This document shows positions 22,757 through 58,339 of a stretch of DNA of 64,000 nt, one piece after another; the first letter of the stretch is position 1; each line of letters starts with the position of its first letter. The translations under genes and the position numbers were made by a program. The notes below the pieces were generated by a model. The model ran no database searches, was not told the DNA's origin, and saw nothing but the letters and a program-made list of their open reading frames with translations. Location of the stretch: the NCBI GenBank assembly GCA_016710435.1, contig JADJVV010000001.1, forward strand, positions 739,912-803,911, written 5' to 3'. This DNA is from Hyphomicrobiales bacterium. GTDB lineage: Bacteria; Pseudomonadota; Alphaproteobacteria; Rhizobiales; Aestuariivirgaceae.

Positions 22757-25700
22757 TTAGTGAAAATCCCGGCTCCTCGGCAGCACGCGGATGTTGCGGG
22801 GATGGCGGGTTGAGCTTTGCTGGTGTTGCGCGGGGTCTGGCCCCGGCTTCTTCACTTCATCGGCACGCGCCGTGGTGCTGCGCAACGTCAGGCCATCCTC
22901 GGTGAGGGACGAGAGCCAGTGCGTCTTGTCCTCGATGCGGTTGGCGACGACGTGGATGATGTCGCCAGCCCGCTGCACCCGTCCCCGGATCAGCATCAGC
23001 CGCGCCCCCATCACGGTGGACCTGTGCGCCTCCAGCACATCCGGCCAGATCACCGCGTTGCACACCGAAAACTCGTCCTCGAGAGTAAGGAAGACAACCC
23101 CCTTCGCCGAACCCGGCCGCTGACGCACCAGCACCACGCCCGCAACCGATACGGCACGGCCGTTGCGCAGGGATTTCAGCGCCCCGTTGTTCGTCACCTT
23201 TTCCGCCGCGCAGCGCGCCCGCAGGAAGTGCATGGGATGCGCTTTCAGCGACAGCTTCACCGTCTGGTAATCGTTCACCACATGCTCGGAGAGTGGCATC
23301 TCGGGCAGCGGCACGGGCTGCTCCGCCCCCTGGTCCCGTTCCTCAGCGAAAGCAAAGAGCGGCAAGGGCGCCCGCGCCTTGGCCAGCGCCGTCACCTCCC
23401 ACAGGCCCTGCCGCCGGTCGAGACCGAGGGAGCGGAAGCAATCGGCGGCGGCCAGTTTCTCCAGCGCCGGAACAGGAAGGCCGAGGCGCAGAAGATCCGT
23501 CATTCCCGACAGGCGCCGCTGCCCCGCAGGGCAGAGAAGCGGAGTGGCATCCCGTTCCCGCAAACCATCCACCTCACGAAAGCCGAGTCGCACGGCAATC
23601 GCTCTGCCGCGTTTCTCCAGCACGGAATCCCACTGTGAGAAGCTCACATCGACAGGCAGCACCTCGACGCCATGTTCGCGGGCGTCGCGGACGATCTGGG
23701 CCGGCGCGTAGAAGCCCATGGGCTGCGAATTGAGCAGCGCGCAGGCGAACACCGCCGGATAGTGGCACTTGAGCCAGGCCGAGACGTAAACGAGATGCGC
23801 GAAACTTGCGGCATGGCTTTCCGGGAATCCATATTCGCCAAAGCCCTTGATCTGGTTGAAGCAGCGCGCGGCAAAGTCCGGGTCGTAGCCGCGTTCCACC
23901 ATGCGGCTCACCATTTTCTGTTCCAGCCGCCCGATGGTGCCGCGCCGCCGGAATGTGGCCAAAGCCTTGCGCAACTCGTTGGACTCCGCCGGCGTGAATT
24001 CCGCCGCCACCATGGCAAGTTTCATCGCCTGTTCCTGGAACAGCGGCACACCCTTGGTGCGGCCCAGCACCTGGCGCAATTCATCCGGCGGCCCGAAATC
24101 CGGGTGGGGCGCGGGATAGTCCTCGGGCTCAAGACCATCGCGCCGCCGCAGATAGGGATGCACCATGTCGCCCTGGATGGGACCGGGCCGCACGATCGCC
24201 ACCTCGATCACCAGATCATAGAAGCGCCGCGGCTTGAGGCGTGGCAGCATGTTCATCTGCGCCCGTGACTCCACCTGGAACACGCCGATGGAATCCGCCT
24301 TGCACAGCATGTCATAGACGGCCGCATCTTCGCGCGGCACGGTGGCCAGAACATATCTGTGCCCATACCACGCCTCGATGAGCTCGAAGCTCTTGCGGAT
24401 GCAGGTGAGCATGCCCAGCGCCAGCACATCGACCTTCAGCATGCCGAGCGTATCGATGTCGTCCTTGTCCCACTCGATGACGGTGCGGTCATCCATCGCC
24501 GCATTGCCGATGGGCACCGTCTCGTCCAGCCGCTCGCGCGTGAGAATGAAGCCGCCCACATGCTGCGAGAGATGACGCGGGAAACCGGCAATCTCGGCGG
24601 CAAGTTCCAGCACGCGGGCGAGATGCGGATCATCCGGATCAAGGCCGATCTCCTTCAGCCGCTTCTCCTGCAACTCTTCCGGCATCATGCCCCAGATGCT
24701 TCCGGCCAATACGCCCGTCACGTCTTCGGAGAGCCCCATGACCTTGCCCACCTCGCGCATGGCCGAGCGCCCGCGATAGGTGATGACGGTGGCGGCAAGC
24801 CCGGCACGCTCGCGCCCGTAGCGCCGGTAGAGATACTGGATCACCTCCTCGCGCCGCTCATGCTCGAAGTCGACGTCGATGTCGGGCGGCTCCTTGCGCT
24901 CTTCCGAGATGAAACGCTCGAAGAGAAGATCGATCTGGTTGGGATCAACCGCGGTGATGCCGATCACGTAGCAGACCGTGGAGTTGGCAGCGGAGCCCCG
25001 CCCCTGGCAGAGGATGGGTGGATCGAGGCTGCGGGCGAAGCGCACGATGTCATGGACGGTAAGGAAATACGGCGCGTAGTCGAGCTTCTCGATCAACACC
25101 AGTTCCTTGGCGATGTTGCTTTTGATCTTGGCGGGGAATGCCCTCGGGGTAGCGCTCCCGGGCGCCCTCCCAGGCCAGATGCGAGAGATAGGCCTGCGGA
25201 TCGAGTCCCGCCGGCACCGGCTCTTCAGGATATTCGTAACGCAGTTCATCGAGCGAGAAGAGGCACGCCTCCGCAACCGCGACGGTGTTGGCAATGGCGT
25301 CGGGATAGGCGCGGAAGAGCCGCGCCATTTCATCCGGCGTCTTGAGGTGCCGCTCGGCATTGGCCTGCAGCTTGTAGCCCGCTTCCGCCAGCGTCACCTT
25401 CTCGCGGATGCAGGTGAGCACATCCTGCAGGGGCCGCCGGTCGGCATGATGGTAGAGCACGTCGTTGATGGCGAGCAGCGGCACGCCGGCGCTGCGCGCC
25501 CGCGCGGCACTCTCGGCCAGCCGCGCCGTGTCGCGCCCGTCGAAACGGCAGGAGAGCGCCAGGTGAAGCGGCGCGGCGATGATGGCCTTGACCTCCTCCA
25601 GCCGCACCGCGTGGTCCTGCGGCAAGGCAAAGAGCGTGCCCTCGGAAAAATCCCGCACATCTTCCAGCGTGAGCAGGCATTGCCCCTTCTCCGCCCGCCG

Positions 25701-25991
25701 CTGCCCCAGCGAGAGAAGCCGGCACAGGCGCCCATAGGCCTTGCGGTCCGTGGGCCAGGCAAACAGGTCCAGGCCGTCGCGCATCACCAGCCGCACACCC
25801 ACCAGGAAACGCAGGCCCGCATCCTTCGCCGCACCATGGGCGCGCACGATTCCCGCAAAGCTGTTGCGGTCGGTGACGGCGAGGGCCGAAAGCCCCAGGT
25901 GCTTCGCCTGCAGCACAAGTTCCTCCGCATGCGATCCGCCCTGCAGGAAGGAGAAGTTGGAAGCGCAGGCGAGTTCGGCATAGCGGTTCAT
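22757..25991 (-). pseudogene. dnaE2: Error-prone DNA polymerase DnaE2 with one +1 frameshift at ~25133-25136
   Basis: N-part MNRYAELACASNFSFLQGGSHAEELV (PHP) reads to ...YPEGIP. The C-part continues [11 protein letters not shown]...[10 protein letters not shown]...PPDIDVDFE...LKVDVLALG...SRDFH in another frame. Removing one G from GGGG gives 1077 aa with no internal stop. Real lesion or sequence error cannot be distinguished. Confidence 0.9.
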
Positions 25992-26013
25992 GATGCAGCC
26001 CTCTCGTGGTTCC

Positions 26014-27523
26014 TCATGCCGATAGTCCGTGTACGAACCATTTGGGCGGCGGGCCTGAGTCTTCACCATAGAGACCTTCGCGGAAGATCCAGTAGCGCCG
26101 GCCCTGCTCGTCCTCGATCATGTAGTAGTCGCGCGGCCGCGTGCCCGTGTCGCCGCGCCACCATTCCGGCGCGATCCGTTCCGGCCCGGCATGGCGCAGG
26201 ATGCGCCGCGTGACACGCCGCCAGGTGAGTGACATGGGCGGGCCATCCGGGCACCGCGGCGATGACGCGGGCGGGCTGCGGCGGCACGAAGATCATCAGC
26301 GGCCGCTCCGGCAATCCGCCGCCTCCCGCCGGTGGCAGGGGCATTCCCAAGGCCTGCGCCTCTTCCGACCGCTCCGGCAGATGGCTTTCGACAGCGGCAA
26401 GCTGCGTGATCGCCCGTTCCTGCCGGTTCATCACCCGGTCGTTGAGCTGGGCAAGGTTGCTGGCCGTGTTCTCCTCCATGAAGCCGTATTGCCGCGCCAC
26501 GGCAGAGCCCGCCTCGCGCACCTCAAGCGTCATGGCATCGATGCCGAAGCCCGCATCCAGCGTCTCCAGCCGGGGCGAGAGCAGGCGGAACAGATGTCCG
26601 CCGTCATGCGACGGCACCGTGAGGCCAATGGGCACCTGCACCCGCCCGCCATCACTGCGGAAGAGCTTGAGAATGAGCCGCAAGGCCCCTTCACCCTTGG
26701 CCTCCAGCGCCCGCGCCACCTCGGCGGAAAGGGTGCGCAGCACCGTTACCAGCCCTTCATGGGTGATGACCGGCTCCAGGAACCCGCGGTGCGCCATGAC
26801 CGAGGTTTCAGGATTGACCGCATTGAGCGGTTCGGCCCTCTGGCCCAGCAGTTCATCAAGGCGGAGCAGCACGTTTTCATGGATGCTTTCCCCACGGAAG
26901 CGCCGCGCCAGGCTCGCCCGCGGCAGGCTGGTGAGGGCCCCGATGGTCTTCAGCCCCAGCCGCCGCAGGGTGCGGGCGGCATCGGCATTGATGCGGAGCG
27001 CCTCCACCGGGAGGTCCTGCAGGCTGTCCTCGCCCTCGCGTCCATAACGGGCCAGCGCCCAGGCGGCTCCGATGGTGGCGGCACAGGAAATGCGGGCGGT
27101 AAAGCCATAGCCCGCCAGCCGCGCCTTCATGCCCGCCATCATGGCGGCCTCCCCGCCGAAGAGGTGGGGAATGCCCGTCACCTCCATGAGGATGCCATCC
27201 GGCACATCCGGGGCGACCCATGGGCTGTAGCGTTCCATCCAGCGGCACAGCCCAAGCAGACTGGCGATGTCCTGCTCCGGCTCATGGGCCTCGCTCAGGA
27301 GATCGGGCACGGCGGCGCGCGCATCCGCCAGCCGCTGCCCGCGCATGAGTCCGAATTCCCGCGCCGCCGCATTGACGGCCGCGAGCCGAAGCCCCTTGGC
27401 GCCCCGTTCAACCAGCGCGAAGGGCAGGCTTGGGGGCGGCACGGGGGCCCGCCTCTTCCGCCGCGCCCGAATGAAGCGCTCCACCGGAAAGGCCGGGAAC
27501 CAGAGTGAAACGAGACGGCGCAT
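26014..27523 (-). pseudogene. imuB: ImuB (Y-family polymerase-like) with one +1 frameshift at ~26249-26251
   Basis: MRRLVSLWFPAFPVERF...YSPWVAPDVPDGILMEVTG. The C-terminal GPERIAPEWW...RDYY...WIFREGLY...HGLSA is in another frame. Removing one G restores VPDGPPMSLTW and gives 502 aa. Confidence 0.88.
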
Positions 27524-28376
27524 GATCCTTCTGCCAGTTGAGTGTCCAGGAACCGGGGCGGCCGCCCCGGATGCGGGTAAGGGCCACCTGCCAGGCGGGA
27601 AGTCCGGGGGCGCGGAGATCGGATGCGGCCGGGGGCGAGCGTGATGCTGCAATGCACCATCGACTGGAGCTGGCCGTCGAATCCATACTGTATCGAGTCA
27701 ATACAATAAGGCCGGCAGAGCCTCCGGCCTGCCCCGCCAGAGCCAGCCGACGGGTCGCCGTCAGATCAGCAGTGTGCGCTGCAACATCACCCAGAACCAC
27801 GGATAAACAGCCGGATTTCAGAGCCTCCTCCAGGGTCCACAACAGGGCCACGGGACGCTTCAGGCTGAGCGTGAGAAAGCGGGCCCGGGGAAGGCCAATG
27901 GCCGCCACGCCATGACCAAAAACATGACCATACTCCCGCTGTTCAGTTTCGAGACGACACCATAAAACGGGGCGTTTCTCCCGCGGGTCTGTCAGGCGCC
28001 GAACCGCCAGCGCCAGGGCAAAGCCACAGGCCGCCGGGAAGTCGCCATAGGCGGCAGGCGAGATGTCATGAAGGCCTGTCCCGGCCAATCCCTCGCCCGG
28101 CAGGAACCTGTCGAGGTCCGGAAGGCCCAAGGTCCAGGGTACGCTGTCCCGGCGCGATGCCCGTCGCCCGGGAGACGGCTGGACCCCTGCGTCTCCCTGC
28201 CGGGCCAGATGCTCCCGCAGGCGGGCGATCAGGGCTTGCGCCTCCTCCCGCTCCGGCAGAACCCGGGCCACGGCAGGCATGGCGGCAGGCTCCCCTGCAG
28301 GAGAGCCGGTGAGTGAGGCAGACGCCGGGCGCGAAAACGCCCCCGCCGCCCGAAGGGGCATCGGGTTGATACGCAT
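27408..28376 (-). CDS. imuA: ImuA (RecA/SulA-like mutagenesis accessory protein)
   Basis: LHDISP, LWTLEEALKSG, LTATRRLALA, TASSSRWCI, PGLPAWQVALTRIRGGRPGSW; first gene of the cassette; start uncertain (28376 or 28280). Confidence 0.85.
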   Translation of the reverse strand: MRINPMPLRAAGAFSRPASASLTGSPAGEPAAMPAVARVLPEREEAQALIARLREHLARQGDAGVQPSPGRRASRRDSVPWTLGLPDLDRFLPGEGLAGTGLHDISPAAYGDFPAACGFALALAVRRLTDPREKRPVLWCRLETEQREYGHVFGHGVAAIGLPRARFLTLSLKRPVALLWTLEEALKSGCLSVVLGDVAAHTADLTATRRLALAGQAGGSAGLIVLTRYSMDSTASSSRWCIAASRSPPAASDLRAPGLPAWQVALTRIRGGRPGSWTLNWQKDHAPSRFTLVPGLSGGALHSGAAEEAGPRAAPKPALRAG

Positions 28377-28477: not shown

Positions 28478-28936
28478 TCAATTCAGCATGAACAACGCCG
28501 CATTGAGCGCGGTGGCGAAGCTGACCCAGGCGAGATAGGGCACCATCAGGAAGGCGGCGAGGCGGCTTCTGAAGGAATAGGCGAAGATCATCGCCGCGAT
28601 CGCAATCCACAAGGGGATGATGTCGAGCAGCCCCAGCCCCGGCGAACGGGCTCCGAAAAACAGGAACGACCAGGCGAGGTTCAAGAGCAGCTGCGCCGCG
28701 AAGATGAGCATGGCGCCCCGCGCATTGCCCTTGCGCCAGACCAGCCACGCCGCAATGCCCATGAGAACGTAGAGCGTCGTCCACACCGGCATGAACAGCC
28801 ACGGTGGCGGCGTCCACGAGGGCTTGGCCAGGGTCGGATACCAGTCCGCCACCGATTGGGCCGTGGCCCATCCGCCCAGCGCGCCCACCGCGAGGCACAG
28901 CACGATGAACCCCAGAAGTGCCAGAAAATCCCGCAT
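28478..28936 (-). CDS. tspO: TspO/MBR family tryptophan-rich sensory protein
   Basis: WYPTLAKPSWTPP, VWTTLY, LNLAWSFLFF, MVPYLAWVSFATALN. Confidence 0.93.
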   Translation of the reverse strand: MRDFLALLGFIVLCLAVGALGGWATAQSVADWYPTLAKPSWTPPPWLFMPVWTTLYVLMGIAAWLVWRKGNARGAMLIFAAQLLLNLAWSFLFFGARSPGLGLLDIIPLWIAIAAMIFAYSFRSRLAAFLMVPYLAWVSFATALNAALFMLN

Positions 28937-28945
28937 GATCAACCT

Positions 28946-30073
28946 TTACATCATCCCGTTGACGCTGCCGAGCGAGGCCCAGAACATGAGCCCGCCAAGT
29001 GCCGCGATGCCTGCTCCGGCGAGCAGGCGTACAACCAATACGACACGCTCCAGCATTTGGTTCCCCAATCCGGCAAACCGCAATGCCGCACCCTTGGCAA
29101 ACACCGCCAGCGCAGCGATGGCCGAGATGGTGATGAACACCCCGAGCCCCATGGCCAGCGTGGACAGGATTCCCGCCCAGTAGAGCCCCATGCCCCAGGA
29201 AAACAGCAGCACCAGCAGCGCCCCCGAACAGGGCCTGAGGCCCACCGCCAGCGCCAATGACAAGGCCCGCCGCCACGACCAGTCTCCCCGGACATCAGCC
29301 GCCGCCGGCACATGGGCATGGCCGCAGCCGCACTCCGGCCCGTGCACATGACCAGCAGGAAGTGATGCGGACATGGGCTCCGCCAATTCGAAGCGGAAGC
29401 CATCGTCTGCGCCCATCGCCACGCCTGCCGGCACGGGTGCCGGTGCGGGTGCCGGTGCGGGTGCCGGTGCGGAAACCGCCACCGCCGGCCGCCGCAGGCC
29501 GGTCCAGATCAGATAAAGCCCGAGTCCCGCGATCATGAGATAACTGGCGCTTTCCAGGAAGCCCGCCACGTCTCGCGCCATGCCGGCAGCACTTCCCACC
29601 AGCGCCAGCAACGCGGTCACGATGATGATCGCCGTCAGGGCCTGGAACAGGGCGCTCAGGGCGGCGATGGCGATGCCGCGCTTCAGGTCGTTCTGCGTGG
29701 CAACGAGCCAGCCCGAAATCACCACCTTGCCATGCCCCGGACCGGCAGCGTGGAAGACGCCATAGAGGAAGCTCACGAACACCAGCGTCCATCCCGCCTG
29801 CAGCGGCGAATCGGACGCAAGCCCGCGGATCGCACCGGAGAGCCTGTGATAGAAATTCTGCTGCTTGTCCCGCGCCCAGCGCACCGGGTCCTCGCTGAAC
29901 GGCGTCTCGATGATCGACCCGTCGGGATTGCGGGGAGGCACCAGCAGTTTGCGCTTGTCGATCACGATCTTCGGCGGCGGTGGCGATGATGCACCCTCCT
30001 GCGCCAGCACCGGCAGCGAGAACCCTCCCGCCAGCATCATCAGCACCAGAACCGCGCGGATCAGGAGCCGCAT
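28946..30073 (-). CDS. Nickel/cobalt transporter family (NiCoT/RcnA-like, ZevB-like) membrane protein
   Basis: FHAAGPGHGKVV, His/Cys-rich loop GHVHGPECGCGHAH, GLRPCSGA. Confidence 0.85.
   Translation of the reverse strand: MRLLIRAVLVLMMLAGGFSLPVLAQEGASSPPPPKIVIDKRKLLVPPRNPDGSIIETPFSEDPVRWARDKQQNFYHRLSGAIRGLASDSPLQAGWTLVFVSFLYGVFHAAGPGHGKVVISGWLVATQNDLKRGIAIAALSALFQALTAIIIVTALLALVGSAAGMARDVAGFLESASYLMIAGLGLYLIWTGLRRPAVAVSAPAPAPAPAPAPVPAGVAMGADDGFRFELAEPMSASLPAGHVHGPECGCGHAHVPAAADVRGDWSWRRALSLALAVGLRPCSGALLVLLFSWGMGLYWAGILSTLAMGLGVFITISAIAALAVFAKGAALRFAGLGNQMLERVVLVVRLLAGAGIAALGGLMFWASLGSVNGMM
29435..29470. repeat. In-frame 12-bp tandem repeat (GGGTGCCGGTGC x3) encoding a Pro-Ala linker
   Basis: Three exact copies at 29435, 29447, 29459; translates as APAPAPAPAPAP in the NiCoT protein. 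Confidence 0.85.
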
Positions 30074-30717
30074 GTCACCACCATCGGGCGCGCGAAGAGC
30101 GAGCCAAAATCCTCGCCCGTGTCATTCACCCAGTCCGTGCCCTTGTCGGCCAGGAAGTTGCGCTTCTTCTCCAGTTCCTCATCGCTGAGGAACGGCTTCA
30201 GTTCCCAGCTGCAGCCCTGCGGCAGCGTTCCCTCCACATCGACGGGATCATCCTTCACGTAATCGAAGGAGATGAAGAAGTCGGGGTCATAGACCTTGTA
30301 GTCGAACACGCCCTTGCGCGGATCGGCCGGTGTCACCAGCGGGAAGACAAAGGCCAGCGTCAGGCGGTTGTTCTCGTAGATCTGCGTGTAGTCCGTGACC
30401 TTGCCATGCGGCAGCGGCTTGTTGTTCTGCCGCATCACGGCGAAGTAGTCGGACTCCGCGAGGTTTGCGATATTCTCGTCGGTGAGCGGCTTGATTTCTT
30501 CCGGTCCATAGGTGCCGTCACCGTTCACATCGAGTCCATCGAGTGCGAAGCCGCTGTAGGCTTCATCGAAGGTCCACTCCATGCGCACACCGGTGATGAG
30601 GCCCTGTGCGTCCACCATCAGGCTCGTGCGCACATCGGCCCACACATGCGGATGCGCCGACGCCGAAGACAGGCCCACGCCGCAGAGAAAGACGAGAGAA
30701 AGGATGGGCCGCCGCAT
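30061..30717 (-). CDS. DUF1007 family periplasmic protein (ZevA-like)
   Basis: Signal peptide then AHPHVWAD, WTFDEAYS, YDPDFFISF; overlaps the NiCoT start by 13 bp. Confidence 0.88.
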   Translation of the reverse strand: MRRPILSLVFLCGVGLSSASAHPHVWADVRTSLMVDAQGLITGVRMEWTFDEAYSGFALDGLDVNGDGTYGPEEIKPLTDENIANLAESDYFAVMRQNNKPLPHGKVTDYTQIYENNRLTLAFVFPLVTPADPRKGVFDYKVYDPDFFISFDYVKDDPVDVEGTLPQGCSWELKPFLSDEELEKKRNFLADKGTDWVNDTGEDFGSLFARPMVVTCGS

Positions 30718-30780
30718 GTCGCTCCAAAATCCGATTCGACGCCTGCAATGATCGGAGAATGGGGCGAGAAAGTGAAGGCC

Positions 30781-31719
30781 TCACCCGGCGAGGCAGTCTT
30801 TCAGGCTCTGCGCCAAAGTGCTCAGCAATGTGCCGTAGGCCTGCTTGCCCGGCACCAGCGTGCTGCCGATGCCGTCGACAACACCACTGCGGGCGGGCGT
30901 GTCCTCCGTCACGGCATCTGCGGCGCGCGCCGAGAACTGCGGCTCACGGAACACACACACGGCACCCGATTCCTTGACGATGTCGCGCACCTCCTTCAGC
31001 CGCTGCGCCGACGGTTCGCTCGCGGCAAAATCCGTGATGCTTCCAGCCGCCGTGAGGCCAAAGCGCCTTTCGAAATACTGGTAGGCGTCGTGCTGCACGA
31101 GGAACGGTTTGCCGCGCACATCCGCAAGGTCGCGGCGCAACGCGGCTTCCAGTGCATCAATCTCCGCCGACAAGGCCCTGGCATTCGCAGCGTATTGCGA
31201 GGCATGATCCGGATCGGCTTTCGCCAGCGTCCCGGCAATCGCCGCCCCCATCAGCTTGGCATTCTCGGGATCAAGCCAGAGATGCGGGTCGTAGGCCGCC
31301 GTGCCGTCGGCATGGCCGTCCTCCGCTTCGCCCGCGTCATGCACATGTGCCGGAAAGGTGGCCCCCACACGGATCGGCAGCTTCGTCAGGCCCGGCGTGT
31401 CCGAAAGGGCGACGAATGTCCGGCGGTTCACCGCTTCGCTGCCGCTCAATTCATCAAGCTTCAGTTCAAGGCCGTGACCGATCATGAACACCACATCAGC
31501 GGACCCCAGCGCCTCGATCTGCCGCGGCGCGTAGGAGGCCTGGTGTTCACTGCTCAGCCCCTGCAACAGAAGTTCCGGCTCCCCCACGCCGTCCATGATC
31601 GATGCCACGAGGGAATGTACCGGCACGATGGACGCAATGACGCGGGGGCCGGCGAGTGCGCCGGGCGTAGAAATCGCGGTCCCGAGTGCGAGCGCTGCAA
31701 GGCAGGTATTCAGGCGCAT
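30781..31719 (-). CDS. znuA: Zinc ABC transporter substrate-binding protein (ZnuA-like)
   Basis: ASIVPVHSLVASIM, SEHQASY, His/acidic loop HVHDAGEAEDGH, DPHLWLDP, QHDAYQYFE. Confidence 0.88.
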   Translation of the reverse strand: MRLNTCLAALALGTAISTPGALAGPRVIASIVPVHSLVASIMDGVGEPELLLQGLSSEHQASYAPRQIEALGSADVVFMIGHGLELKLDELSGSEAVNRRTFVALSDTPGLTKLPIRVGATFPAHVHDAGEAEDGHADGTAAYDPHLWLDPENAKLMGAAIAGTLAKADPDHASQYAANARALSAEIDALEAALRRDLADVRGKPFLVQHDAYQYFERRFGLTAAGSITDFAASEPSAQRLKEVRDIVKESGAVCVFREPQFSARAADAVTEDTPARSGVVDGIGSTLVPGKQAYGTLLSTLAQSLKDCLAG

Positions 31720-31735
31720 TCACCCTCCCATGGTT

Positions 31736-31760
31736 GGATATGTTATAACATAACATATCC
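31736..31760. promoter_or_regulatory. Zur box (perfect 11-3-11 palindrome)
   Basis: GGATATGTTAT-AAC-ATAACATATCC, 17-41 bp upstream of the znuA ATG; matches the proteobacterial Zur consensus core ATGTTATA-N-TATAACAT with one deviation. Confidence 0.88.
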
Positions 31761-31867
31761 AGGCGATCGATCAAGTCCGGTTTTCCTCCCCCTGCGCACG
31801 CGATCGTGACGCCCCCGCGACGCTGCCTGCCTTGCGCCACGGCCAATCCCCTGCCAGAGAGCCGGGC

Positions 31868-32611
31868 ATGGATTTGAATGTCAGCATCGGCGCGGCTCTT
31901 CTGGCGGGAGCTCTCAGCTTCCTCTCCCCTTGCGTGCTGCCGCTGGTGCCGCCCTATCTCTGTTACATCAGCGGCGTCTCGCTGGACGATCTCTCCGGAG
32001 AAGAAGTAAAGGTACAGAACCATCATCGCCTCCGCGTGATGCTGGCGGCCCTGTGCTTCGTGCTCGGCTTCACCACCGTCTTCGTGCTGCTGGGGGCCAC
32101 GGCCTCCGCCGCCGGGCAGATGCTGCGCCAGTATCTTCCCGTGCTGACGCAGGTGGCCGGCATCGCCATCATCGTCATGGGGCTGAACTTCCTCGGACTC
32201 TTCCGCCTCTCCTTCCTCGCGCAGGAGAAGCGCTACCATCATCCCGGCGAAGGCGTGACGCTGATCGGCGCTTACGGCATCGGACTTGCCTTTGCCTTCG
32301 GCTGGACGCCCTGCATCGGGCCTGTGCTGGCCGCCATTCTCTCAGTGGCAGGATCGACGGAAAGCGTCAGCAAGGGCATGAGCCTGCTCGCCATCTATTC
32401 GCTGGGCCTCGGCATTCCCTTCCTCATCGCCGCCTTCAGCCTTGATACGTTCCTCGGCTTCTCCCGCAAGTTCCGCCGCCACATGCCGAAGGTGGAGCGC
32501 ATCATGGGACTGCTGCTCGTGATCACCGGCGTCATGTTCCTCACAGGCTCCATGCAGACGCTCTCCTACTGGCTGATCGAGTGGTTCCCCGGCCTTGCAT
32601 CCATCGGCTGA
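31868..32611 (+). CDS. ccdA: Cytochrome c biogenesis protein CcdA
   Basis: SFLSPCVLPLVP and FGWTPCIGPVL (two redox Cys), six TM segments. Confidence 0.92.
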   Translation: MDLNVSIGAALLAGALSFLSPCVLPLVPPYLCYISGVSLDDLSGEEVKVQNHHRLRVMLAALCFVLGFTTVFVLLGATASAAGQMLRQYLPVLTQVAGIAIIVMGLNFLGLFRLSFLAQEKRYHHPGEGVTLIGAYGIGLAFAFGWTPCIGPVLAAILSVAGSTESVSKGMSLLAIYSLGLGIPFLIAAFSLDTFLGFSRKFRRHMPKVERIMGLLLVITGVMFLTGSMQTLSYWLIEWFPGLASIG

Positions 32612-34110: not shown

Positions 34111-35013
34111 ATGACGCCAGAAGAAGAAAAAGACGCCCGCGACGCCATGCGCGTCATTCCCACCCTCTCGGCCTATTCCGGCCCCATTGAGCGCCTGGGT
34201 GGCCTGACCAACCGGGTCTACCGCGCCGGGGGCCATGTGCTGCGCATCCCCGGCAAAGGCACGGAGGAATACATCAACCGGACCCATGAGGCGGAGGCAG
34301 CCCGTGTCGCCGCCACGGCGGGCGTGAGCCCCGAAGTGATCCACGCCGATCCACAGACCGGTGTGATGGCGACCGTGCTGGTGCCCGATGCCGTGACCAT
34401 GTCGCCCGACGCCTTCCGAAGCCGCAAGGGCTCACCCGCCCGCGCCGGACTGGCACTCCGCCGCCTGCACACCTCGGGCGGACTCTTCCCGTTCCGCTTC
34501 GAACTCTTCGCCATGATCGACGACTATCTCAAGGTGCTGGCAACCAAGGATGTGGACCTGCCGGACGGTTATCATGACGTGGTGCGCGAGGCCGATGCCA
34601 TCCGCGCCGCACTGGCGCGCAAACCCGCACCGCTTGTTGCCTGTCACTGCGATCCCTTGTGCGAGAACTTCATCGACACCGGCAGCCGCATGTGGATTGT
34701 CGATTGGGAATACTCCGGCATGAACGATCCCATGTGGGACCTCGGAGATTTGTCCGTCGAGGCAGGCTTTGACCAGACGCAGGAGATGGAGATGCTGTCG
34801 GCCTACTTCGATGGCGCGCCCGCCGCCGCCGATCACGGCCGCATGGTGATCTACAAGGCCATGTGCGATCTGCTGTGGACCCTGTGGGGCCTGATCCAGC
34901 ATGCCAACAAGAATCCCGCGGATGATTTCGCGGCGTATGCCCTCAACCGCTTCAACCGCTGCAAGACTCTGATGGCAGCGCCGGGGTTTGCCCGGCATCT
35001 TGCCGCCATCTGA
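34111..35013 (+). CDS. Choline/ethanolamine kinase-like phosphotransferase
   Basis: LGGLTNRVY, LRIPGKGT, Brenner motif CHCDPLCENF, IVDWEYSGMND. Confidence 0.87.
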   Translation: MTPEEEKDARDAMRVIPTLSAYSGPIERLGGLTNRVYRAGGHVLRIPGKGTEEYINRTHEAEAARVAATAGVSPEVIHADPQTGVMATVLVPDAVTMSPDAFRSRKGSPARAGLALRRLHTSGGLFPFRFELFAMIDDYLKVLATKDVDLPDGYHDVVREADAIRAALARKPAPLVACHCDPLCENFIDTGSRMWIVDWEYSGMNDPMWDLGDLSVEAGFDQTQEMEMLSAYFDGAPAAADHGRMVIYKAMCDLLWTLWGLIQHANKNPADDFAAYALNRFNRCKTLMAAPGFARHLAAI

Positions 35014-35015
35014 TC

Positions 35016-35498
35016 TCAGGCGGCTTCGCCCCGCACCGCCGCCTCGATCGCGGCAACGTCGATCTTGCGCATGGGCATCATCGCATCGAAGGCCCGCTTG
35101 GCAACGGCACCACCCTTGGCCATGGCATCCGTCAGGACGCGCGGCGTGATCTGCCACGACACGCCCCACTTGTCCTTGCACCAGCCGCAGGCGCTTTCCT
35201 CGCCGTGATTGTCCACGATGGCGTTCCAGTAGCGGTCGGTTTCAACCTGGTCGTCGGTAGCGATCTGAAAAGAGAACGCCTCGTTGTGGCGGAAGGCCGT
35301 ACCGCCGTTGAGGCCGATGCACGGAATGCCGCAGACGGTGAATTCAACGAGCAGTACCTGGCCCTTCTTTCCATCCGGAAAATCCGAGGGCGCGTAGTGG
35401 ATGCCCGTCACCTTGCTGTCGGGAAATGTCTCCGCATAGAAATTCGCGGCCTCTTCGGCGTCGTGGTTGTACCACAGGCAGATTGTGCTCTTGTTCAT
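35016..35498 (-). CDS. VOC family protein (3-demethylubiquinone-9 3-methyltransferase/PhnB-like)
   Basis: ICLWYNHDAEEAANFY, GLNGG, EAFSFQI, CGWCKDKWGVSWQI. Confidence 0.9.
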   Translation of the reverse strand: MNKSTICLWYNHDAEEAANFYAETFPDSKVTGIHYAPSDFPDGKKGQVLLVEFTVCGIPCIGLNGGTAFRHNEAFSFQIATDDQVETDRYWNAIVDNHGEESACGWCKDKWGVSWQITPRVLTDAMAKGGAVAKRAFDAMMPMRKIDVAAIEAAVRGEAA

Positions 35499-35557
35499 CG
35501 CAAGTCCTCCTCGGCCGCCGGGGCTTCAACGCCGAAGGCCCGCGTGCGGTTCCACCG

Positions 35558-36661
35558 TTACACCCAGCGCACCGCATAGATCTGTGGAAGCGTGGAACTG
35601 ACCTGCTTCCACCCCTCGCCACCGTTTTCGCTGACCCACAGGTTGCCCGTCGTCGACCCCATGGCAAGGCGCTTGCCGCTGCCGTCAATGGCGAGGCCGT
35701 GGCGGAAGACGAGATCATAGGCATTCTTCTGCGGCAGGCCCTTGCTGAGGCTCTTGAACGTCCGCCCGCCATCCTGCGTGCGCGTGACCACCAGCGCACC
35801 GCCCACGGGGATTCGCTTTTCATCCTTGATGCCCGGCACGAACCACGCCGTGTCAGGGTCTTGCGGATGAACAGCAACGCCGAAGCCGAATGAAGAGGGC
35901 TTGGCCTTCACCTCGCGCCACGTCACGCCATCGTTGACTGATTTGAAGATGCCGGCGTGGTGCTGCACCCAGAAGCACGACGGGTCTCCGGCACATTGCA
36001 CCATCATGTGCGGGTCTTGCGTCTCGGGGTTGGCCACTTCTTCCGGCGGACCATCGCCAAAGCGCATGCCATGGGCCGACTGCGCCCAGGTCTCGCCGCC
36101 ATCCTTCGTGACCCACACGCCGCCGCACGAGACCGCAACGCGAACCGTATCCGGATCGCGGGGGTCAACGCAGATCGAGTGGATGCCCGGAATGTCGGCA
36201 CCGCCGCCCAGCCACTTGTTGCGCGACGGGTGACGCCACAGGCTTTCCATCAACTCCCAAGTCTCGCCCCGGTCACGCGAGCGAAAGAGACCGCCCGGCA
36301 AGGTGCCGGCCCAGAGCGTGCCCTTCTGGTTGGGACCACCCGTCTCCATCGACCAGATCAGTTGCGTGGACCAGGTGACGGGCTTGCCCCAGCCATCAAG
36401 ATCGACAAGCGTCTCCGGCTTCCTGGGATAGGCGGGCGTGGTGATTTCCTTCCAGCTTTTGCGGCCCCTGTCGCGGCGATGCAGTTTGATGCCGAAATGC
36501 CCGTGGTTCAGCGCCGCATAGTCGGCCCCGTCACGGGGGTCGTGCAGGGTGAGGGTGACGTTGTCTCCCAGGAAATGGGCATCCCGCACCATCCATCCCC
36601 GGCTTCCCTTCGCCACATCGAACAAGCCCTTGCGGGTGGAAACCATGAGGGATGGTGCCAT
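35558..36661 (-). CDS. BNR/Asp-box beta-propeller protein (sialidase-like fold), no signal peptide
   Basis: Five Asp-box-like repeats: SRDRGETW, TKDGGETW, SVNDGVTW, TQDGGRTF, SENGGEGW. Confidence 0.85.
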   Translation of the reverse strand: MAPSLMVSTRKGLFDVAKGSRGWMVRDAHFLGDNVTLTLHDPRDGADYAALNHGHFGIKLHRRDRGRKSWKEITTPAYPRKPETLVDLDGWGKPVTWSTQLIWSMETGGPNQKGTLWAGTLPGGLFRSRDRGETWELMESLWRHPSRNKWLGGGADIPGIHSICVDPRDPDTVRVAVSCGGVWVTKDGGETWAQSAHGMRFGDGPPEEVANPETQDPHMMVQCAGDPSCFWVQHHAGIFKSVNDGVTWREVKAKPSSFGFGVAVHPQDPDTAWFVPGIKDEKRIPVGGALVVTRTQDGGRTFKSLSKGLPQKNAYDLVFRHGLAIDGSGKRLAMGSTTGNLWVSENGGEGWKQVSSTLPQIYAVRWV

Positions 36662-36662
36662 T

Positions 36663-36932
36663 CTAGCCTCCCGAGAGGGCCTGCATGACCCAGATTTGCG
36701 AAGTGGGCGTCACGATGTCGGAGAGATGGTGCCGGTCGTTGATGGCCTGGCCGTCGATGAGGATGCGCATGTGCTTGCGCAGCGCCCCCTGGTCATCCAG
36801 CAGATAGTGGCGGAGCTGCGGATTGGCCGCGAAGGCGCCATCCAGCACGGCCCTGACCGTACCTCCGGTGCTCTCCACGCGCGCGCAATCCACATGGCGC
36901 CGCAGGTTCGAGGTGAAATGGACAGTGGCCAT
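36663..36932 (-). CDS. MoaD/ThiS family ubiquitin-like protein with C-terminal Gly-Gly
   Basis: 89 aa beta-grasp pattern (TVRAVLD..NPQLRHYLLDDQGALRKHMRILIDG), ends ALSGG. Confidence 0.9.
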   Translation of the reverse strand: MATVHFTSNLRRHVDCARVESTGGTVRAVLDGAFAANPQLRHYLLDDQGALRKHMRILIDGQAINDRHHLSDIVTPTSQIWVMQALSGG

Positions 36933-37018
36933 GGGCCAAAGGCTAACACGGCTTTTGTCCTTTGACCAATCCCGCCCGCGACCCTAAGGGAAGGCCACGC
37001 AATCTCCGGGAGCATCAG

Positions 37019-37435
37019 ATGAAAGCCAAAATCACCTGGATCAACGGCCGCGCCTTCCTGGGCGAGTCGGGCTCGGGTCATGCCGTCGTCATGGATGGTG
37101 CGCCGGAGGCGGGAGGCCGCAACATCGGCGTGCGCCCCATGGAAATGCTGCTGCTCGGCCTCGGCGGCTGCACCGCTTTCGACATCGTGATGATCCTCGA
37201 AAAGGCGCGCGAGAAAGTGACGGGCTGCGAAATCGAACTCGACGGTGAACGCGCCACGGAAGACCCCAAAGTTTTCACGAAAGTCACCATGACCTACGTG
37301 CTGAAGGGCCACGGACTGAAACCCGCCGTGGTGGAGCGCGCCGTCAAACTTTCGGCGGAAAAATACTGTTCAGCCTCCAAGATGTTCGAGAAGACCGCGG
37401 AGATTTCCCACGCATGGAAGATCATCGAAGCCTGA
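37019..37435 (+). CDS. OsmC family protein (YhfA-like)
   Basis: RPMEMLLLGLGGCT ... KYCSAS (two conserved Cys). Confidence 0.9.
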   Translation: MKAKITWINGRAFLGESGSGHAVVMDGAPEAGGRNIGVRPMEMLLLGLGGCTAFDIVMILEKAREKVTGCEIELDGERATEDPKVFTKVTMTYVLKGHGLKPAVVERAVKLSAEKYCSASKMFEKTAEISHAWKIIEA

Positions 37436-57593: not shown

Positions 57594-58075
57594 CCGCGCT
57601 TGCGCGAACACATGGCCTATCTCGACGCCCTTCTTGTTAAACGGCGGCGCTATCGGGCCACGAACGCGGAGGGCACATGACATAAGTCCGACTGCATGGT
57701 TGACTTACGGGCCGCAACTTTCCTATGTCGCCACCCCCGCTCAAGGAGGGCGGTTGTCGTGACGCACCAGGACCCGCCGGAAGAAAACATCGTGCCGCCC
57801 TTTGAAATTCCAGTGGGTGAGACAGATAGCTTTCCCGCCAACAGGGTTGCATTCTACGGTGACTTCGAGACGGACGGGGTGTGGAGCGCGGGTGGCATGT
57901 GCTGCTCGGCCGATGCACTTCGCATACCTGTGGCTTTACAACAGGCGATCGGTGAATGGGGAACAGTGGTTCGACCAGCGCGGCATCTCTCTCGCCTGGC
58001 AAGTGAGAAATTCGTATGTATTGGACGTTGAGCAATTTTTCCGAACGCTATGTCACCCCGTATTGGTAGCTTAAA

Positions 58076-58339
58076 ATGAAAAGCAATAAGACTCTTTCTT
58101 GGGCAATAGTGATGATCTTTGCCAACGGTTTGCTACCCATTGTCCATGCTCAAGGCGCACGTGTGATTCTTGGGGACACATGGGTGCAGCAGCACACGCT
58201 TCGCCTTGCCTGGTTTTGGTCAGTCGCAATTCTGATTAACTCGCTCAACCTTTTTGCGACGGTGAGCACTACGAACCATAAGAGAGCGATCAACTTTGCA
58301 ATGCTCGTGCTCAACGTCGTGTCTGGCTGGACGCACTGA
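58076..58339 (+). CDS. Possible small hydrophobic (membrane) protein in the island
   Basis: 87 aa ATG-started ORF with about three hydrophobic stretches; no family recognised. Confidence 0.25.
   Translation: MKSNKTLSWAIVMIFANGLLPIVHAQGARVILGDTWVQQHTLRLAWFWSVAILINSLNLFATVSTTNHKRAINFAMLVLNVVSGWTH

Follow-up and report, generated by a model that had tools for sequence, protein, structure and literature searches.

Background

Proteins of the MoaD/ThiS type are the prokaryotic roots of ubiquitin, and each new dedicated partner found for one of them has so far revealed a pathway of sulfur insertion or tagging: thiamine, molybdenum cofactor (Moco), cysteine, methionine, thiosugars, tRNA thiolation and SAMPylation. 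Here we describe a gene pair in which a ubiquitin-like protein (Ubl) of this kind is encoded directly upstream of a cytoplasmic, seven-bladed Asp-box β-propeller. The pair lies in a 64,000-nucleotide stretch of contig JADJVV010000001.1 from a Hyphomicrobiales bacterium, and this whole stretch is called the window below. Comparison of loci at the level of sequence shows that Ubl and propeller form one functional unit, strictly co-inherited across phyla and often fused into a single protein.

The closest described systems are carriers encoded beside their enzymes. In CysO-CysM, ThiS-ThiG, HcyS-MetY and the QbsE system, the gene for a Ubl ending in Gly-Gly adjoins that for the enzyme using up its thiocarboxylate; these operons usually carry an activating enzyme (E1) and/or a JAMM protease as well, and their acceptor enzymes are pyridoxal phosphate-dependent or TIM-barrel proteins. 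The present pair differs in having nothing else linked to it and in having a propeller as the partner. Some sulfur carriers have extra residues after the Gly-Gly that a protease removes, and one orthologue of the Ubl described here similarly ends in SGGQQ. In layout the nearest parallel is MoaD-MoaE, where a Gly-Gly β-grasp protein is again encoded directly upstream of its partner: the Escherichia coli moaD and moaE genes are 1 nt apart, as are the two genes in the window, and the E1 gene moeB lies 45 kb away, so the arrangement of our pair is not odd for a carrier and its enzyme. The likeness ends with the proteins, as the partner here is a seven-bladed propeller rather than a MoaE fold and there is no detectable similarity to E. 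coli MoaD or MoaE. A fused and cleaved MoaD-MoaE form, MoaX, exists in mycobacteria and keeps the Gly-Gly at its junction. Another relative, SAMP1 of Haloferax volcanii, is a dual sulfur carrier and protein modifier. It belongs to the same length class as our Ubl, shares the end SGG, and gives the best-scoring profile for it (NF041918); unlike SAMP1, the window Ubl is bacterial and tied to a propeller, which SAMP1 lacks, and there is no conjugation machinery nearby.

Among Asp-box propellers, sortilin Vps10 and Ycf48/HCF136 share the fold and bind C-terminal tails, a logic that would suit a receptor for a Gly-Gly tail. Sortilin differs in having ten blades plus 10CC modules and in being extracellular, Ycf48 in being lumenal or periplasmic, and both are only 12-15% identical to the window propeller. 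Much nearer is the protein of Protein Data Bank (PDB) entry 3b7f (Reut_B4987, YP_299179.1), a seven-bladed propeller with five Asp-boxes that has been described as the sole representative of a functionally uncharacterised family (PMC2716378).

Results

Ubl and propeller are inherited together

A reading of the window made from its sequence only (the sequence-only reading) had proposed an uncharacterised system in which Ubl and propeller are partners, and had asked for a count of the pair across genomes; that count bears the proposal out. Taking one genome per species, we examined 80 loci with separate (split) genes, in which the propeller is 55-98% identical to that of the window and which span at least 8 phyla, including Alpha-, Beta- and Gammaproteobacteria, Planctomycetota, Acidobacteriota, Gemmatimonadota, Verrucomicrobiota, Bacteroidota and Myxococcota. 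In every locus with upstream DNA (77/77), tblastn with the Ubl of the window as query finds an orthologue immediately upstream of the propeller gene and in the same orientation; in the remaining three the contig ends at the propeller start. The gap between the genes in the 72 other loci where both are present is mostly -4 to +40 nt. The C-termini of the 73 recovered Ubl open reading frames (ORFs) are equally uniform: 69 end in ALSGG, three in SLSGG and one in SGGQQ, 72 thus stopping exactly after the Gly-Gly. This unbroken adjacency, together with frequent fusion, the invariant Gly-Gly and the lack of any other conserved neighbour, supports the propeller as a partner dedicated to the Ubl.

The association extends to propellers less than 55% identical to that of the window. 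On a Bacteroidota plasmid whose propeller is only 38% identical to that of the window, a Ubl ending in ALSGG is again directly upstream, and in Arthrobacter sp. StoSoilB13 (L089:3992-5417; propeller 30% identical) the order is reversed, with a Ubl ending SVAGG-stop about 20 nt downstream. No Ubl adjoins the propeller genes on plasmids that a search with 3b7f brought up, whose products share about 38-40% identity with 3b7f. One propeller homologue without an adjacent Ubl, on a plasmid of Rhodobacter sp. CZR27 (L171:1083-4610), is divergent from egtB-egtD, genes of ergothioneine biosynthesis.

In Pseudomonas aeruginosa and on the Ralstonia solanacearum megaplasmid, RefSeq names the pair 'MoaD/ThiS family protein' and 'exo-alpha-sialidase'; homologues are also present on Burkholderia and Cupriavidus replicons. 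To judge from the neighbouring pmpM gene, the P. aeruginosa pair would be PA1355 and PA1356. A transcriptome paper describes PA1356 as promoting colonisation, adhesion and biofilm formation (PMC11538994); if PA1356 is this propeller, that description, apparently taken from the 'sialidase' annotation, is probably unfounded. Our literature searches returned no paper describing or linking the Ubl-propeller pair, its fused form or its breadth. Papers on COG4447 were set aside as literature on the pair: their subject is another family, periplasmic and Ycf48-like, with links to DUF1302, DUF1329 and RND exporters.

The ubiquitin-like protein

The Ubl (MATVHFTSNLRRHVDC...IWVMQALSGG, followed by TAG) has the C-terminal Gly-Gly of the ~70-100-aa β-grasp class, and the fold itself is seen in the model of a homologous fused domain. 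It scores 22.4 bits against Pfam ThiS (PF02597; cut-off 22.5) over residues 16-89, and the same family is precomputed on many of its close homologues and on the fused forms. Among named profiles, the archaeal SAMP1 equivalog NF041918 scores best (41.7 bits over residues 6-89, E = 1.3e-10), below its cut-off of 60; against the archaeal MoaD profile TIGR01687 it scores 17.8, far under the cut-off of 49.5. Of the proteins with solved structures, SAMP1 and a MoaD-related protein of Thermus come closest, at E ~0.1. No match to the window Ubl gene was returned by tblastn with E. coli MoaD, nor is a MoaE encoded in the window, and the PADLOC defence models match neither the Ubl, the propeller nor their fusion.

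We found 731 close homologues of the Ubl, each about 89 aa long. In an alignment of 240 relatives the conservation of G88 and G89 is 1.00 where the Ubl is split and 0.98 where it is fused, and at L10, G23, T25, L40, D46, R52, H54, S87, G88 and G89 it reaches at least 90% in either form. SAMP1 also has the internal Asp...His motif (D46...H54). The free Gly-Gly terminus is under strict selection.

Fused Ubl-propeller proteins

Two propellers of the representative library are about 90 aa longer at the N-terminus than the others, and both are Ubl-propeller fusions. They belong to a sister clade, represented by more than 100 clusters, in which the pair is joined into one protein: in a search with one of them (P0310), the best 120 matches are all fusions, of 441-485 aa, with PF02597 and PF15902 on nearly all, from Actinomycetota, Thermoanaerobaculia and others (NCBI, JGI and ENA assemblies). 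The Ubl part ends at the junction motif AISGG, whose I83, G85 and G86 are invariant in 46 aligned fusions, and a disordered linker of variable length and composition then leads to the first propeller strand, ELLVGTRKG. Across 121 fusions this linker is Ala/Glu-rich and 4-27 aa long (mode 5, median 11), and in 92 of them Ala directly follows the Gly-Gly. An AlphaFold2 (AF2) model of P0310, with a mean predicted local distance difference test (pLDDT) of 85 and a predicted template modelling score (pTM) of 0.76, consists of a β-grasp-like N-domain and a propeller.

The P0310 gene stands directly after CoxS/CoxL/CoxM-like molybdenum hydroxylase genes and a DUF1326 gene (L083:3272-9362). A fusion of another kind is P0370, a protein of 704 aa with no obvious membrane segment in which an N-terminal Ser/Thr protein-kinase domain is joined to a propeller of this family; it hints that the propeller can serve as a cytoplasmic ligand- or protein-sensing module.

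Fold and conserved residues of the propeller

The window propeller matches 3b7f over its full length (residues 5-365, E = 2.9e-48, ~31% identity). Its own AF2 model is confident (pLDDT 89, pTM 0.89), and the top Foldseek match of that model is again 3b7f (template modelling (TM) score 0.85, root-mean-square deviation 2.7 Å). By full-length similarity in sequence and fold, by its seven blades and five Asp-boxes and by the invariant pocket residues that the two have in common, it belongs to the 3b7f family, although the two proteins are only ~31% identical. The family is large: more than 7,900 homologous clusters at 90% identity, 386 clusters at 50% identity with E <= 1e-30, and members in different phyla that are 55-60% identical. 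Pfam assigns BNR and Sortilin-Vps10 (40.3, over its cut-off of 33), and the fold matches that rank next are individual propellers from GH74 enzymes, which have two, followed by DAIP, Ycf48 (some entries in complex with the D1 C-terminal peptide) and sortilin Vps10 with C-terminal peptides.

The features that the sequence-only reading had described are present: the 89-aa Ubl ending in LSGG, the 1-bp gap and the 367-aa propeller are exactly as it gave them, and a pattern search for S/T-x-D/N-x-G-x-x-W/F places the five Asp-boxes at residues 128-135, 185-192, 241-248, 295-302 and 344-351. That the propeller has no signal peptide holds too: none is apparent from the model or from where homologues start (no dedicated predictor was run), as residues 4-9 already form a blade β-strand in the confident model and homologues begin at the same place. 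The proposal of a His/Cys-rich metal site fared less well. The motifs GIHSIC, SCGG, DPHMMVQC, QHHAG and FRH all occur, and within them H161, H218, Q233, H235 and R320 are conserved; the cysteines C164, C179 and C223 vary across the family, and the site that is conserved consists of Lys, Arg, His and Gln, so the metal site as proposed is not supported. Invariant in split, fused, reversed-order and unpaired members alike, and present in 3b7f, are T9, K11, R147, H161, H218, Q233, H235, R283 and R320. (Residue numbers count Met1; the alignments and the window model lacked it, and numbering there is one lower.)

Asp-boxes are known to sit between strands 3 and 4, on the side of the propeller opposite the active site (PMC2716378). 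From this and the DSSP strand order of the model, rather than from coordinates, the conserved polar residues would lie at inner-strand starts and in 2->3 loops, that is, on the top face around the axis. The Asp-boxes are then presumably structural turns on the face opposite this pocket. Both chain ends should also be on that opposite face, because the last blade is closed by the C-terminal strand together with three N-terminal strands. In composition the Lys/Arg/His/Gln site looks more like an anion-binding or acid-base pocket.

Judged by sequence and model, the propeller is not a sialidase. Sialidases of GH33 are six-bladed, catalytic and usually secreted, whereas the propeller here has seven blades and a cytoplasmic N-terminus; there is no Pfam BNR_2 match at E <= 1, no GH33 member occurs among the 50 best fold matches, and sialidase sequences in the PDB match at E = 0.6-0.8. 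With no such fold in the top 50 and no significant sequence match, the name 'exo-alpha-sialidase' rests on the Asp-box repeats. GH74 xyloglucanases have two tandem propellers with a cleft between them, as against a single 367-aa propeller here; the GH74 matches cover one propeller only (target-normalised TM ~0.3), and the match in sequence is limited to residues 110-195. Scores for Ycf48/HCF136 (NF010237, 17.7 vs a cut-off of 326) and for the F510_1955 glycosylhydrolase (NF045728, 59.6 vs 175) are likewise far under their thresholds.

Gene layout and expression

The coordinates of the locus are collected in Table 1. The single base between the stop of the Ubl gene and the start of the propeller gene suggests translational coupling, and the VOC/PhnB-like gene beyond the propeller is possibly co-transcribed with the pair. 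RNA-library contigs from wastewater cover both genes, two of them (X26, 36516-36917; X27, 36598-36742) span the junction, and X30, from a true metatranscriptome, has fragments in both genes. This fits co-transcription of the pair, with DNA carry-over in those libraries as another possible source. An apparent RNA joint from 34961 to 36086 (~1.1 kb) was rejected as an artefact, neither splicing nor deletion, produced by chance 21-nt matches of unrelated contigs; the two 21-nt stretches concerned (34941-34961 and 36086-36107) are touched by RNA contigs at a depth of ~110 in two wastewater runs. The region as a whole is found at 74-93% word identity in activated-sludge and wastewater metagenomes. 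Its nearest genome is an uncultured alphaproteobacterial metagenome-assembled genome (MAG), followed by Aestuariivirga-like MAGs.

Table 1. Features of the Ubl-propeller locus (window positions)
Feature	Positions	Strand	Description and basis
Ubl gene	36663-36932	-	ORF, 89 aa; MoaD/SAMP1-like β-grasp protein; end QALSGG-stop
Gly88-Gly89 codons of the Ubl	36666-36671	-	Directly before the TAG stop (36663-36665)
Ubl/propeller junction, TAG-A-ATG	36659-36665	-	Single spacer base, 36662
Propeller gene	35558-36661	-	367 aa; cytoplasmic seven-bladed Asp-box β-propeller, YP_299179.1/3b7f family
Span with the five Asp-boxes	35609-36280	-	Pattern search on the translation; Pfam BNR
Span with family-invariant polar residues (proposed top-face axial pocket)	35702-36637	-	Alignments and 3b7f; codons T9 36635-36637, K11 36629-36631, R147 36221-36223, H161 36179-36181, H218 36008-36010, Q233 35963-35965, H235 35957-35959, R283 35813-35815, R320 35702-35704
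VOC/PhnB-like gene (PF06983)	35016-35498	-	Pfam; 59 nt 3' of the propeller gene
OsmC-family gene, divergent	36962-37435	+	Pfam; short intergenic region common with the Ubl gene

Neighbouring genes

As the sequence-only reading had stated, the window lacks the usual sulfur-transfer partners: the Pfam domains of 62 window ORF products include no ThiF/MoeB, MoaE, ThiG, PALP/CysM-type, JAB or rhodanese domain, and tblastn with E. coli MoaD, MoaE, MoeB, ThiF, ThiS and ThiG gave a best E of 0.03. With E. coli MoaA, MoaC and MoeA, or with the cysteine desulfurase, SufU and XdhC of Chondrinema, tblastn found nothing in the window either, and the whole set of queries yielded next to nothing in the other loci.

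No third gene is conserved with the pair. All-vs-all clustering of ORFs from the 80 split loci left only the pair itself as widely common, plus alternative-frame artefacts inside the two genes; the 'conserved ORFs' of this kind in the propeller gene were discarded as products of high GC. The 150 immediate neighbours fall into 223 Pfam families, the commonest of which (PCuAC, 7/150) is confined to close relatives of the window organism. The fused-type loci, 82 in number (80 metagenomic ones together with L083 and L084), have lineage-specific neighbours only (α/β hydrolase, NadA, WS/DGAT), and the two fusion loci on long contigs have unrelated contexts. Over some 165 loci examined for linked genes, the flanks contain no MoeB/ThiF homologue, and a MoaE is near the pair in only three. 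The genes flanking the window pair are no exception: the VOC/PhnB-like family accounts for only 3/150 immediate neighbours and so is not a conserved partner, the OsmC gene is a neighbour in only six closely related loci and reflects lineage-specific synteny, and no other window neighbour is conserved with the pair outside close relatives.

On a plasmid of Chondrinema litorale (NZ_CP111049.1; L086:488-5074) the gene order is cysteine desulfurase-SufU-MoaE-XdhC-Ubl-propeller; at no other locus did we see sulfur-mobilising and Moco genes adjoining the pair.

Within the window, Pfam places downstream of the pair the VOC/PhnB-like gene, a choline-kinase-like phosphotransferase (+), a methyltransferase, a HAD hydrolase (+) and DsbD_TM (+), and further downstream a ZnuA-DUF1007-NicO-TspO metal cluster and a DnaE2/ImuB cassette. 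In the metal cluster (28478-32611), TspO, NicO, DUF1007 and ZnuA occupy the minus strand and are followed by DsbD_TM on the plus strand; its synteny with the pair is confined to Aestuariivirga-like MAGs. The cassette (22757-27652, minus strand) comprises a DnaE2-type DNA polymerase III alpha subunit and an ImuB-like protein of the IMS family, an error-prone 'mutasome'. Upstream and divergent are OsmC, a 152-aa protein, an FAA-hydrolase-family protein, a class II aldolase and a Tad/vWA protein, and past these lie 2-oxoacid:ferredoxin oxidoreductase genes. Elsewhere in the window (57802-58339, plus strand) two adjacent ORFs of 90 and 87 aa have no Pfam match and a third-position GC of ~0.60 vs ~0.8 for the rest of the window; they could represent foreign DNA or a toxin-antitoxin-like pair.

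Discussion

By analogy with known carriers, we propose, at a probability of about 0.45, that the pair is a self-contained carrier and partner, organised like MoaD-MoaE, in which the thiocarboxylate tail of the Ubl would be delivered to the propeller pocket and the E1 would be encoded elsewhere. The module would work like MoaD-MoaE, ThiS-ThiG or CysO-CysM: a housekeeping E1 of the MoeB/MoeZ type would adenylate the Gly-Gly C-terminus and turn it into a thiocarboxylate, the thin tail would enter the positively charged top-face pocket near the axis (K11, R147, H161, H218, Q233, H235, R283 and R320), and an anionic small-molecule substrate would receive the sulfur there. Fused versions would have to release the Ubl beforehand by a cut after the Gly-Gly, as in MoaX, since the linker, which can be as short as four residues, is presumably joined to the propeller on its other face.

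Several observations weigh against this proposal. The propeller N-terminus, which tethers the Ubl in the fusions, probably lies on the face opposite the conserved pocket, and an uncleaved Gly-Gly on a linker of 4-5 residues could therefore not reach it; the AF2 model of the fusion leaves the Ubl tail unplaced, residues 82-95 (Gly-Gly and linker) having a pLDDT below 50. Propeller homologues in Streptomyces, Marivivens and Rhodobacter have no Ubl nearby. In the ~165 loci the pair has no linked E1, rhodanese, JAMM protease or, the Chondrinema gene excepted, cysteine desulfurase; this absence fits an E1 acting in trans and also a system without sulfur chemistry. We know of no precedent for a β-propeller as a sulfur-acceptor enzyme, and the nearest characterised single-propeller relatives (sortilin Vps10, Ycf48 and DAIP) are binders, not enzymes.

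One alternative is a tail-receptor or regulatory complex without sulfur chemistry, in which the Arg/Lys cluster would bind the carboxylate of the Ubl and the Ubl would act as a lid, an adaptor or a stabilising subunit. Relatives in fold do bind C-terminal peptides or proteins (Ycf48 a D1 peptide, sortilin neurotensin and PGRN, DAIP a thermolysin fragment); the loci, Chondrinema apart, have no linked E1 or sulfur genes; fusions are abundant with no linked protease; the Ser/Thr-kinase fusion suggests a role in sensing or binding; and unpaired homologues retain the same pocket residues. Yet 72/73 split Ubls stop exactly at Gly-Gly, as does the Ubl of the reversed pair, a precision that is the signature of C-terminal activation chemistry and hard to explain by binding alone, the three invariant His and the Gln of the pocket look catalytic, and fusions offer no free carboxylate unless they are cleaved; a complex of this sort is a serious contender that we nonetheless think doubtful. 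Somewhat more unlikely in our estimate is a propeller that is a new kind of enzyme or receptor acting on the Gly-Gly of its own Ubl without a dedicated E1, which might cut the precursor after Gly-Gly-Ala and hold, modify or use the tail in its pocket. Improbable, though with several observations in its favour, is protein conjugation of the SAMP, Urm1 or TtuB kind, with the Ubl attached to target lysines and the propeller serving as target, reader, ligase-like factor or deconjugating/processing enzyme: SAMP1 is the best profile match of the Ubl, the Gly-Gly is invariant, the fusions resemble linear Ubl-target precursors with a conserved GG-Ala junction, and Lys11 is invariant at the N-terminal turn of the propeller, but the SAMP1 score is under its cut-off, no locus has a linked E1, conjugating enzyme (E2) or JAB/deubiquitinase gene, neither PADLOC nor any known bacterial ubiquitination-like system matches, and nothing points to protease or ligase chemistry in a propeller.

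A side branch of Moco biosynthesis, with the Ubl as an extra MoaD that also serves MoaE and the propeller as an accessory in sulfuration, repair or delivery of molybdopterin or molybdenum enzymes, would account for the Chondrinema plasmid locus, for the fusion gene adjoining CoxS/L/M-like genes and for the canonical moaD-moaE found within 5 kb in two fused loci. Such contexts make up only four of the ~165 loci, the other neighbour families being unrelated, E. coli MoaD has no detectable similarity to the window Ubl gene, and the score against the MoaD-family NCBIfam profile is far under its cut-off; we rate this explanation slightly lower again, as quite improbable. That the propeller is an ordinary glycosidase or sialidase merely standing beside a MoaD paralogue, an outcome that the sequence-only reading had set against its own proposal, is scarcely credible. 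Database names ('exo-alpha-sialidase', 'glycosyl hydrolase, BNR repeat') and the weak F510_1955 match speak for it, and everything else is adverse: the propeller is cytoplasmic and single where GH74 needs two, BNR_2, the solved sialidases, the 50 best folds and the NCBIfam threshold all fail to support it, none of the features that define GH33 or GH74 is present, and adjacency in 77/77 loci together with fusion to the Ubl is beyond coincidence.

What was already known are the superfamilies of the two components and the structure of the propeller family; what no paper in our searches describes is the obligate partnership of Ubl and propeller, its fused, precursor-like form and its breadth, and the mechanism, too, stands a real chance of being new. 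The pair occurs in well-studied bacteria amenable to genetics (P. aeruginosa, Ralstonia solanacearum, the Burkholderia cepacia complex and Cupriavidus metallidurans), and the propeller family has had a crystal structure since 2007. Thousands of wrong 'sialidase' annotations could be corrected. Working out the pair would likely reveal a step in which a metabolite or cofactor is thiolated, or a new way of reading a Ubl tail; if the propeller does act on the tail of its own Ubl with no dedicated E1, the two proteins would constitute a minimal, self-contained two-component Ubl system spread over bacterial phyla and the first functional link between β-grasp Ubls and Asp-box propellers of the sortilin/Ycf48 type.

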